Virus genome (UHGV): UHGV-0176705
Origin: a virus
DNA: 30,191 nt
Direction: 5' to 3' (one strand)
The translations under genes were made by a program, and so were the position numbers. The stretch's first letter is position 1; every line of letters starts with the position of its first letter. Below, piece by piece: positions 5,591 to 7,579 of the stretch. A model generated the notes under the pieces. That model worked only from the letters and a program-made list of their open reading frames with translations, did no database searches and was not told the DNA's origin.

Positions 5591-5756
5591 TGATCGGGAT
5601 TTACATAATGTGTTGAATATGAACGATTTATTTTTTTCATGCAAGACATTATGTGCATTTTACGTACATATCGTTGTCCCAGTAACGTCCTGATTCTGTC
5701 CAATATTTTGAAACATGTGTAGAATGTGGGTTTTCGATTTTTGTAGAGAATTTCGG

Positions 5757-6668
5757 ATGAAGGTTCTTGTTCCACCTCCTGAAATTTGTATTTATTCTGA
5801 TAAGTACCGACTAGACACATTGAAATTTCTTAACGACATTGACACGATGGGGGTGACGGATGGTTGTAAGCTTGAGATTGATTTATCTAACGTTCGTTTT
5901 GCTTCAGCTGCGGCATCGCTACTATTTTTCGCAATAGTTAATCGGGCAAATCTGCTTACAGGTGATCCTAACTTGATACGTTTCAAATGGCCGAAAAAAA
6001 ACGACAATCCAAATGGGCATAAGTGGTTAGTTAGCACCGGGCTCTCTAAAGCTCTCCTGGCTGGAACCCCAGAGAAATTAGAAAATCTTATTAAAGATGG
6101 GCGTTTTTTTCAGTCTGCTACCGAACCATTTTCGCATTTATTGGACACAGTTAGTGTATTACAGTCGAAGGCAGCGTTAAATCAGCATCAGTTAAATCTG
6201 CTCATGACAGCTGTTGGTGAGGCACTTTTGAATGTTTCGCATCATGCATACGAACATGAGATGTTTTCACAAGATTTAATTCTGCTCCAGGGGAAGCGTT
6301 GGTGGCAGTGTGCGTGGTTTGATCCTGCGCAAAATGAGGTTGTTTTTATCGTTTGTGATCTGGGGTTGGGGATTTTTCGATCGTTTAGTCCCGAGGCTGA
6401 TGGTGTTAGTATAGAAAAACAAGTATCTTCAGTAGCAAGAGCTATGCTTGTTGGGCAGAGCCGTTTTGTAGGGGACGGGCGAGGGAATGGCTCGGAAGAC
6501 ATAAAGAGGCCTATCGGTGTTGGGTGTGAGGATAAAGAAACACTCTTAATTCTGACCGGCAATGTACGATATAGCTATAATTCTTTCGACGAAGAACCTC
6601 GCTGTGAGAAACTTGCAGAGTATATTCCAGGTACATTGCTTCAGTGGTCCCTTACTCCAAGGAGATGA
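5757..6668 (+). CDS. GHKL-type ATPase-like protein (anti-sigma-factor/serine-kinase-like ATP-binding fold) with N-terminal domain of unknown function
   Basis: Motifs EALLNVSHHAY (N-box-like), VFIVCDLGLGIF (G1-like) and GDGRGNGSEDI (G2-like). The N-terminal ~100 aa carry a possible STAS-like stretch KLEIDLSNVRFASAAASLLF. Start is ambiguous: ATG at 5715, 5724 or 5757, none with a strong Shine-Dalgarno. Confidence 0.5.
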   Translation: MKVLVPPPEICIYSDKYRLDTLKFLNDIDTMGVTDGCKLEIDLSNVRFASAAASLLFFAIVNRANLLTGDPNLIRFKWPKKNDNPNGHKWLVSTGLSKALLAGTPEKLENLIKDGRFFQSATEPFSHLLDTVSVLQSKAALNQHQLNLLMTAVGEALLNVSHHAYEHEMFSQDLILLQGKRWWQCAWFDPAQNEVVFIVCDLGLGIFRSFSPEADGVSIEKQVSSVARAMLVGQSRFVGDGRGNGSEDIKRPIGVGCEDKETLLILTGNVRYSYNSFDEEPRCEKLAEYIPGTLLQWSLTPRR

Positions 6669-6672
6669 AAAC

Positions 6673-6996
6673 ATGGTTATAGTCATAGCTAAGCAATTTT
6701 CTAAAACGCCGTTTGGTCGATACACGTCGGACGGTCCTGACAGTGCTGAAAGATTCAGAAGAGATTTTTTGGTTCCAGCCTTTAAATCGAGTGGCGAAAA
6801 AATTGTTGTGGATTTCAGGGGGATTGCTTTAGGTGTGGGGTCTTCTTTCTTGGAGGAAGCCTTCGGTGGGTTAGTGCGTAAAGAGGGGATTGCCAAATCT
6901 GAAGTTAAAACACGCTTAGAAATCGAAAGTGATATGCCATTTTATCAAGAACAGATATCTAAGTTTGTTGATCAAGCAAAACCTGAGTTGGCATAA
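6673..6996 (+). CDS. Small STAS-like protein (resembles DUF4325-type STAS-like domain)
   Basis: 107-aa product from the ATG at 6673, 4 nt after the upstream stop, with AAGGAG at 6659-6664. Motif stretch FGRYTSDG...FRRDFLVP...IVVDFRGIALGVGSSFLEEAFGGL. The family assignment is from memory of the motif pattern, not a search. Confidence 0.45.
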   Translation: MVIVIAKQFSKTPFGRYTSDGPDSAERFRRDFLVPAFKSSGEKIVVDFRGIALGVGSSFLEEAFGGLVRKEGIAKSEVKTRLEIESDMPFYQEQISKFVDQAKPELA

Positions 6997-7009
6997 GGAT
7001 TTTTGAAGA

Positions 7010-7579
7010 ATGGCGCAATATGCATGGATGTTTAGTGTCACAAGCATTGCTTTAGTGTTTGTCGGATGGTGGGTAACGTATTGTAACGCTATGCGAATAG
7101 CTACACGTTCAGAGTCAAAGTCTATAGTTGATTCATTGACGAAACTTGTGAGTGAGCTTGCTGATATTTCGATAGATTATTGGCTTAAAAAAGTATCTCA
7201 CATAACACCCCCTCCTGAATCATTACAGGGTTCAGTTGTTCCTGTTGAGGCTGCTGAGTATCTCACTGTGCTTTTGGCGAAGGCAAGCCAGGCAGGGCAT
7301 TATTTTAAGTTACTGAATATTCGAGGTATTGAAGCTGATGCAAGTAAGCTATCTGCAGTGTTAGAAAAAACAAGCCTTGACTGTGAGATCGCTTATTGTC
7401 AATCAGCTTCAGAACGCTGTGTGAGGGCTAATGAAATTATGTCTGTTTGCATGGAGGTGATAGAAGATATTCACTCTAATTTTCAAGCAGCATACCCTCC
7501 ATCAAAACATATTTCACCTATTGCATGGTATAAAAGTAAAGTCAAAGAAATTGAAGAATGGCACGCTAGTATGTATTAG
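7010..7579 (+). CDS. N-terminally membrane-anchored protein, function unknown
   Basis: 189-aa ORF 13 nt after the upstream stop. One N-terminal hydrophobic helix (WMFSVTSIALVFVGWWVTY), then a soluble helical region. The 3' end overlaps the convergent integrase by 14 nt. Confidence 0.45.
   Translation: MAQYAWMFSVTSIALVFVGWWVTYCNAMRIATRSESKSIVDSLTKLVSELADISIDYWLKKVSHITPPPESLQGSVVPVEAAEYLTVLLAKASQAGHYFKLLNIRGIEADASKLSAVLEKTSLDCEIAYCQSASERCVRANEIMSVCMEVIEDIHSNFQAAYPPSKHISPIAWYKSKVKEIEEWHASMY

Follow-up and report, generated by a model that had tools for sequence, protein, structure and literature searches.

What is the function of the three genes that lie between a fragment of ssrA, the gene of tmRNA, and the integrase gene of the prophage found in the virus genome UHGV-0176705? 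The stretch analysed, called here the window, is 30,191 nucleotides (nt) long. An earlier reading made from its letters, the sequence-only reading, had taken these genes for an operon-like cassette coding for a GHKL ATPase-like protein (A), a small STAS-like protein (B) and a membrane-anchored protein (C), and had proposed a partner-switching-like module with a plausible role in phage defence or superinfection exclusion. By analogy to characterized partner switches, we consider, with a probability of about 45%, that A and B form an ATP-dependent partner-switching sensor that would control the membrane protein C and protect the lysogen from superinfecting phages. The cassette and its parts are as follows (aa, amino acids):

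5713..7600, + strand: the cassette as an insertion/deletion unit of ~1.9 kb, delimited by the homology breaks against E. coli A8
5757..6668, + strand: gene A, 303 aa; STAS domain fused to an RsbW/SpoIIAB-type GHKL ATPase/serine kinase
5757..6119, + strand: residues 1-121 of A, STAS-like domain
6126..6665, + strand: residues 124-303 of A, Bergerat-fold domain
6673..6996, + strand: gene B, 107 aa; free-standing STAS-like DUF4325 protein (Pfam PF14213)
7010..7579, + strand: gene C, 189 aa; N-terminal transmembrane (TM) helix, then a predicted cytoplasmic four-helix bundle

The triad and its three proteins

Loci with an A homologue were examined by a local search with hidden Markov models (HMMs). 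In 69 of 69 of them the genes A, B and C were contiguous, on one strand and in the same order, with identities of A down to 22%. This set is composed of 14 contigs taken at one genome per species (A identity from 55% to 22%; hosts among the Enterobacterales, Aeromonas, Colwellia, Oceanospirillaceae, Teredinibacter and others), 15 places with identical copies of the Salmonella, Klebsiella, Yersinia and Vibrio homologues, 38 viral contigs of IMG/VR, E. coli A41 and the Marinobacter phage AS1; a copy from Pasteurella multocida is additional to the 69. The loci are spread across the Gammaproteobacteria and nearly all of them are prophages. The third gene of the triad always encodes a membrane protein, which in the most distant clade has an additional C-terminal TM helix. 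The family of C was recovered neither by a word-indexed protein search (3 matches) nor by a profile re-run (9 matches), and its presence at every locus was shown instead by synteny and local HMMs. Compared with the E. coli A41 copy, the ratio of nonsynonymous to synonymous substitution rates (dN/dS) was 0.25 for A, 0.31 for B and 0.07 for C. The conservation of the triad is well beyond chance and the three genes are one unit; co-occurrence across prophages, which had been put forward as a check of the cassette, was thus found at every locus.

In the open reading frame (ORF) scan the three genes are on the + strand, with intergenic gaps of 4 nt (A-B) and 13 nt (B-C), and C overlaps by 14 nt the convergent integrase ORF (7566..8774, minus strand), so that the coordinates bear out the layout given by the sequence-only reading. 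An alternative ATG for A is present upstream, at 5715, and the first-ATG reading gives 317 aa (5715..6668); the start was taken as 5757, at the equivalent of which A begins both in the homologues of other genera and in the RefSeq record of E. coli A41. The Shine-Dalgarno sequence of B, AAGGAG, is located within the 3' end of A, and that of C is AAGGA. In the relatives the A, B and C genes overlap or are at most ~11 nt apart, and this tight spacing, there and in the window, suggests stoichiometric co-production. The G+C content is 39-45% across the cassette, compared with about 50% in later prophage genes. Scanning the upstream region for promoters gave only weak sigma-70-like matches, fewer than in shuffled sequence, and because shuffled sequence was matched more often no promoter is claimed. 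The prophage arm at 5591..5712 may hold the promoter of the cassette.

Protein A had been described as a GHKL protein with a possible STAS-like N-terminal stretch, on the basis of the motifs EALLNVSHHAY, VFIVCDLGLGIF and GDGRGNGSEDI, all of which are present in it. Both a Bergerat alpha/beta sandwich fold and an N-terminal STAS-type alpha/beta fold were found, the STAS domain being packed rigidly on a SpoIIAB/RsbW-type GHKL domain, and the structural similarity was highest to the HATPase_c_2 (RsbW/SpoIIAB-like) subfamily. The ATP site is formed by the N box E155-x3-N159-x3-H163-A-Y, the G1 motif D201-x-G203-x-G205, the lid R242-G243-x-G245 and G292-T293. Residues E155, N159, H163, D201, G203, G243 and G245 are invariant (256/256 family members), and G205, G292 and T293 are kept in 246, 254 and 251 of the 256, respectively. 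The N box reads E-A-x-x-N-V-x-H-H-A-Y and matched the RsbW signature 'EAxxNxxxHAY' in the HMM alignment. The Pfam match to HATPase_c_2 (E 2.6e-5, 24.7 bits) fell just below the gathering score of 27.4 bits, and some homologues of A carry a precomputed PF13581 match. In a profile search of the PDB the similarity to RsbW/SpoIIAB-type proteins was marginal (E 0.33), and PDB sequence searches gave no usable result for any of the three proteins. A is a cytoplasmic protein of two domains, a GHKL domain of the RsbW/SpoIIAB subtype and, N-terminal to it, a built-in STAS domain. Considering the conserved ATP site and the RsbW-like N box, it is almost certainly active in nucleotide binding and of the anti-sigma serine-kinase type.

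The extent of the A family was established by a full HMMER scan of 1.84 billion cluster representatives, in which 2358 clusters were matched at E<=1e-3, 1245 at E<=1e-10 and 102 at E<=1e-30; the best 150 matches were mostly about 300-390 aa long and aligned end to end. In the STAS domain of A, Ala51 (Ala in 214/256 relatives) was placed opposite the phospho-serine of SpoIIAA by an hhalign alignment that was not significant. Residue 50 is Ser or Thr in 211 of the 256 relatives (82%), so A may phosphorylate itself.

The assignment of B to DUF4325, also made by the sequence-only reading, was confirmed by Pfam (PF14213, E 4.3e-14, 52.4 bits for a cut-off of 23), and the same domain was found in the B genes of the Salmonella, Klebsiella, Vibrio, Yersinia, Marinobacter-phage and Pasteurella copies. 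It is a free STAS-like protein and a true member of DUF4325. Its invariant motif is G56-S57-S58-F59 ... G65-G66, with the Ser-Ser pair at the start of helix 2, and P13, R16, F28, S57, S58, F59, G65 and G66 are 100% conserved in 47 unique sequences. S57 was aligned with Ser58, the phospho-acceptor of B. subtilis SpoIIAA, with an hhalign probability of 0.4%, which is not significant; the SpoIIAA alignments of both B and A served for register only. The hhalign comparison of B with the N-terminal domain of A was not significant either. One protein that looked like an A-B fusion of the Rosetta stone kind (P0103) was rejected as an artefact of a frameshift and a truncation.

For C, a single N-terminal TM helix had been anticipated, and both the Kyte-Doolittle profile and the AlphaFold2 model agree with it. 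The maximum of the 19-residue hydropathy window was 1.60 at residue 7, which locates the TM segment at about residues 7-25 (nt 7028-7084), and the model shows a helix at 5-63 within an all-helical bundle (predicted local distance difference test, pLDDT, 76). After the TM helix there is a juxtamembrane motif, N-A-x3-A-T-R-S-E-S-K-S, and by the positive charges that follow the helix a cytoplasmic location is predicted for the remainder of C. W20 and E35 never vary, and G19, R33, W58 and R105 are more than 90% conserved. C has no Pfam family, and in structure comparison its fold resembles generic four-helix bundles only. The profile and the model together show C as a single-pass inner-membrane protein with a predicted cytoplasmic four-helix bundle.

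Prophage, att site and positions in other phages

The cassette is located next to the att site of a prophage, together with the following features:

5567..5590, - strand: 3'-end fragment of ssrA (tmRNA), att core; TGGTGCTGGCGGGAGTTGAACCCG, the reverse complement of the tmRNA 3' end
5591..5712, no strand assigned: prophage arm beside att, common to sibling prophages without the cassette and ~90% identical to E. coli A8
7566..8774, - strand: lambda-type tyrosine integrase; Arm-DNA-bind_2 E 2e-19, Phage_integrase E 6e-19; in RefSeq in A41 and A8
8702..8911, - strand: excisionase-like gene, 69 aa; overlaps the start of the integrase, with the size and position of the gene annotated 'excisionase' in siblings

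Bases 1-5600 of the window are 99.9% identical to many E. coli chromosomes, and the DNA is E. coli. This segment contains an island that as a rule lies directly beside ssrA and has a P4-type integrase gene (4172-5443, minus strand). On the right of the island runs a lambdoid prophage with int, xis, DUF4222, DUF5406, an SPFH protein, C4/isrK RNAs, a porin, tRNA-Arg and terminase-sized ORFs. It is inserted between ssrA and the P4-int island, leaving the fragment 5567-5590, which is the remnant of a tandem integration adjoining the island with the P4-type integrase. This fragment had been called tmRNA-like, and was recognized as such by an Rfam match to the tmRNA T-arm (5576-5590, minus strand, E 0.017) and by alignment to the E. 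coli A8 and A41 junctions; ARAGORN found no intact tmRNA gene within the window. The integrase was likewise rightly taken for a lambda-type enzyme, as seen from its two domains, and its annotated homologues begin at the methionine of MGKKEQ, about 8747. The siblings that annotate the equivalent 'excisionase' are E. coli A8, MFDS1022581 and IGC_RcoliRes; the gene of the window had no Pfam match.

The idea that the att-int junction holds cargo was sustained by comparison with sibling prophages which have the same att site and integrase and lack the cassette. E. coli A8 shares the island and the att arm with the window and has a sibling integrase; there the arm runs directly into the 3' end of the integrase gene. 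The homology between the window and A8 ends near 5713 and restarts near 7600, within the last codons of int, from which it follows that the cassette is an indel of ~1.9 kb inside the prophage, between the att arm and int. Among 5426 complete E. coli genomes the integrase type was present in 131 and the cassette in one (A41, 91.9% nucleotide identity). The slot is empty in the sibling prophages of A8, MFDS1022581 and MS 115-1; it holds a pair of hypothetical genes (81 and 255 aa) in E. coli IGC_RcoliRes_1.1 (L073 2404-3428) and a 302-aa DUF4760 protein in E. coli 2014C-3057 (L074 2082-2990). The slot behaves as a cargo hotspot and the cassette is optional cargo of the moron type.

The position of the cassette in other phages was also analysed. 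In Salmonella and Klebsiella it is located at the end of the prophage and converges on the integrase, which belongs to two unrelated types; one Salmonella variant of A is indexed in 687 collection blocks. The outside neighbours vary in these two hosts (P4-int islands, a P2 prophage, chromosomal genes), which indicates that the cassette travels with the prophage. In Vibrio the cassette approaches the integrase, again convergently, from its inner side, and dusA lies beyond the integrase. At least 22 of the 38 IMG/VR loci have a convergent integrase no more than about 70 nt past C, and in many of them the provirus boundary coincides exactly with A. Altogether the prophages that bear the cassette use at least three different integrase types. 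In the Yersinia prophages it is found after the tail-fibre genes, upstream of a pRha gene and of a giant LPD/MuF protein.

A third position is next to the repressor gene, in the slot that lambda fills with rexA and rexB downstream of cI. In the cultured Marinobacter phage AS1 the triad is directly downstream of CI (AS1_42), co-oriented with it and divergent from cro. When cultured phages were searched with tblastn, A gave no match and B matched AS1, whose A and C were then confirmed by profile comparison: AS1_41 is the A homologue (hhalign probability 98.9%, E 1.8e-17), AS1_40 is a DUF4325 protein and AS1_39 the C homologue (probability 95.8%, E 6.8e-9). The Pasteurella multocida PF1 'plasmid' NZ_CP112899.1 (L071), circular, 54 kb and typed as a non-mobilizable plasmid, carries cro, cII, O/P-like replication genes, NinB and KilA-N, and is a lambdoid phage genome. 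Divergent from its cro are, in order, an S24/HTH repressor, an A homologue (HATPase_c_2 E 7.6e-4), a DUF4325 protein and a 130-aa TM protein that resembles C in architecture only. In the published gene table of Francisella phage KIRK the order is again CI, a hypothetical protein of 293 aa, a DUF4325 protein and a TM protein (PMC7924643). From the tight operon, the empty and otherwise filled slots and the change of phage backbone, the cassette is shown to be a cargo operon of three genes that is carried by temperate phages, is autonomous and moves horizontally.

Some other features of these regions deserve mention. Just downstream of the triad in Yersinia (L024-L027 10052-16939) there is a giant protein (>2500 aa) with LPD1/LPD5/LPD38/MuF_C domains, preceded in L024 by pRha; it resembles a polymorphic-toxin-like or phage-injected large polyvalent protein. 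In the window, the early-left region adjoining xis codes for an SPFH/Band-7 membrane protein (9756-10583, -), DUF5406 (9344-9787, -) and DUF4222 (9070-9435, -), a trio likewise annotated in the sibling prophage of E. coli MFDS1022581. Further on, isrK (15206-15282, +, 55 bits) and the C4 antisense RNA (15307-15394, +, 84 bits) were both above the Rfam gathering thresholds; isrK/C4 is the P1/P7-type antisense immunity element of some lambdoid prophages. Upstream of tRNA-Arg(tct) (23419-23495) the prophage encodes a full-length general porin (20253-21350, -, Porin_1 E 1e-154), likely an outer-membrane protein of lysogenic conversion. A partial match to the small RNA IsrM at 5499-5721 (minus) was rejected, with 45 bits where the Rfam gathering score is 376. 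Good alignment is confined to the final ~95 nt of the model, over the sequence downstream of the ssrA fragment and a terminator-like hairpin at 5503-5517, and the match probably reflects a shared flank of ssrA rather than a gene for IsrM.

The ssrA island with the P4-type integrase carries two overlapping genes, 177-1895 (+) for a 572-aa protein with HEF_HK and HATPase_c domains and 1879-3645 (+) for a 588-aa Response_reg_2 protein, which look like a histidine-kinase-like/receiver-like conflict-system pair; PADLOC gave no match for them. The island, taken as a 5.6-kb query, is at least 80% present in about 560 complete E. coli genomes. A figure legend of DefensePredictor names 'HATPase' and 'REC' among the domains of predicted, unvalidated systems, with no tie in that legend to each other or to the pair of the island.

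Proposed function and its rivals

In the RsbW/SpoIIAB switches the kinase binds and phosphorylates a STAS partner, and the ATP/ADP balance or a competing ligand decides which partner is bound. Considering that these switches sense ATP/ADP or a ligand, it is proposed that infection flips the A/B switch. In the lysogenic state the prophage would express the cassette. A would bind, and probably phosphorylate, B on the invariant Ser57, and its own STAS domain, with Ala51 in that place, could be a built-in non-phosphorylatable partner or a docking site. The state of the switch would then set whether C is held inactive or released. The trigger would be the infection by another phage, perceived either through a collapse of energy or nucleotides or through a phage protein that binds a STAS domain. 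Once released, C would act at the inner membrane by blocking the entry of DNA or by collapsing membrane function, and the outcome would be Rex-like exclusion or abortive infection, shielding the lysogen population.

The evidence that speaks for an anti-phage or exclusion role is genomic position only. The att/int junction, the post-tail slot and the site downstream of cI are classic locations of lysogen-expressed accessory genes, and since the triad occupies such lysogen-protecting slots it is a good candidate for a new anti-phage system. Of the role that the sequence-only reading had suggested, this positional part stood; homology to known defence proteins was not found, and there was no clear enrichment of the triad beside them. 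The wider claim, that the triad is an unrecognised and widespread prophage anti-phage family, the first with RsbW/RsbV-type switching as infection sensor and a small membrane executor, in Rex-like lysogen-expressed slots, we put forward tentatively and at somewhat less than even odds.

Several results weigh against this proposal. PADLOC-DB v2.0.0 had no match for A or C at E<=1 and only a 12-bit match for B (E 0.012), and the 120 flanking ORFs gave few, scattered PADLOC matches among mostly phage and housekeeping genes. The alternative cargos of the slot in IGC_RcoliRes_1.1 and 2014C-3057 had no PADLOC match. No PP2C phosphatase that would reset a phospho-switch is present, and the placement of B Ser57 and A Ala51 opposite the phospho-serine of SpoIIAA is statistically insignificant. 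As modelled, C is a generic helical bundle with one TM helix and no obvious pore former, and could be an anchor or sensor only. The partner-switching module proposed at the outset holds in the pairing of a kinase with a STAS protein; beyond that it is a resemblance, as no PP2C phosphatase or sigma factor was found at any locus and the putative phosphotransfer to B comes from a non-significant alignment.

That no named family would fit the triad proved correct in the databases consulted. In addition to PADLOC, no model of NCBIfam matches A, B or C, and the PHROGs to which they correspond (A, phrog_3364; B, 5816, by its C-terminal part only; C, phrog_30059) are all labelled as of unknown function. 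The Rex family was not returned for any of the three by Pfam or PHROGs, no direct comparison with Rex sequences having been made. The triad is undescribed in the literature found, which for DefensePredictor, the P2/P4 hotspot study and Kaur et al. 2020 means a search of their text by terms, and a prior description is not fully excluded.

It could also be thought that the triad serves the phage's own life cycle, with A and B sensing the energy or stress of the host and tuning, with C, induction, excision or the timing of lysis. RsbW/RsbV-type switches are classic stress and energy sensors, and in Rhodobacter capsulatus the RbaV/W/Y partner switch regulates a phage-like gene transfer agent. The cassette repeatedly adjoins int/xis or cI/cro decision modules, and convergent transcription into the 3' end of the integrase gene could interfere with int expression. 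However, siblings with the same att, int and early genes do without the cassette, which is therefore dispensable; it moves among unrelated phage backbones, its post-tail copies are far from regulatory modules, and neither a DNA-binding domain nor a sigma factor was found in it with Pfam, PHROGs and NCBIfam. Taking these points into account, we regard a regulatory circuit of this kind as unlikely.

The other two explanations seem weaker. An addiction module of toxin-antitoxin type, in which C or the kinase A would be toxic, B and/or A would neutralise it and the cells losing the prophage would be killed, is in our opinion rather improbable: three components with an ATP-dependent two-domain sensor exceed the needs of such a pair, Pfam gave no recognisable protease-labile antitoxin or DNA-binding autoregulator, and post-segregational killing would be of little gain to integrated prophages. 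It has in its favour that the triad is a tightly coupled small operon on mobile elements, membrane protein included, that a HipA_2 kinase toxin and other conflict genes are among its neighbours, and that purifying selection is strongest on C (omega 0.07). This explanation overlaps with protection against phages, as many systems of that type are abortive-infection systems. Least credible appears a lysogenic-conversion factor, that is, a membrane-tethered signalling device altering envelope stress, motility, biofilm or virulence in the manner of non-sigma partner switches such as SiaABCD, HsbA/HsbR and BtrUVW. The triad brings with it no output enzyme (diguanylate cyclase, phosphatase or transcription factor), and it is also found in phages of marine Alteromonadales, Oceanospirillales, Marinobacter and Francisella; in such diverse hosts any host target would have to be universal.

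If the sensor proposed here for A and B, acting through C against superinfecting phages, is true, partner switching, a textbook signalling logic, would be newly tied to phage immunity, so far as the literature found shows. The triad would represent a new family of defence or exclusion systems, or else a new means by which temperate phages sense the state of the host. It is a compact, portable module of 1.9 kb, present in E. coli and Salmonella prophages, whose A family has more than 1,200 sequence clusters, and it would supply the first function for DUF4325 and for two PHROG families of unknown function.

Comparison with known systems

DUF4325 (PF14213) and PHROGs 3364, 5816 and 30059 are bins of unknown function, none of which links the three genes or proposes a role for them. 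Among characterized systems, the triad resembles Rsb/SpoIIA in that the gene of a GHKL kinase adjoins that of a STAS-type partner, A and B being adjacent in 69/69 loci. It differs in having one STAS domain fused N-terminally to the kinase, in a free partner that is DUF4325 and not a canonical STAS (PF01740/PF13466), in the addition of a membrane protein and in being prophage-borne, and the sequence similarity is marginal. No PP2C phosphatase of the RsbU/SpoIIE type was found in the cassette, in the Pfam-annotated neighbourhoods or among the 25 most frequent of the 113 Pfam families of the flanking ORFs. There is no sigma factor in the cassette or conserved nearby, the third conserved gene being that of the membrane protein. 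Since both the phosphatase and the sigma factor are missing, the triad is not a canonical Rsb/SpoIIA system; by analogy, the cassette would work like the members of this partner-switching family without being one of them.

Compared with the stressosome (RsbR/RsbS/RsbT), the triad has no sensor globin, no N-terminal RsbR domain and no downstream RsbU; its third component is membrane-anchored, and there is no sign in it of a large icosahedral assembly. In Pseudomonas aeruginosa SiaABCD the kinase SiaB acts with SiaC, a STAS-like protein of DUF1987. That system differs from the triad by its PP2C phosphatase SiaA and its diguanylate cyclase output, and it is chromosomal, not phage-borne.

With lambda RexA/RexB, as with SieB-type exclusion, no relation of sequence or fold to the triad was detected, and the resemblance would be a functional analogy. 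RexA is not known to be a GHKL protein, and RexB has four TM helices. As to organization, the triad is, like rexA and rexB, optional prophage cargo located directly downstream of cI and co-oriented with it in AS1 and in the Pasteurella phage, and it likewise combines one or more predicted cytoplasmic sensor proteins with a small inner-membrane protein.

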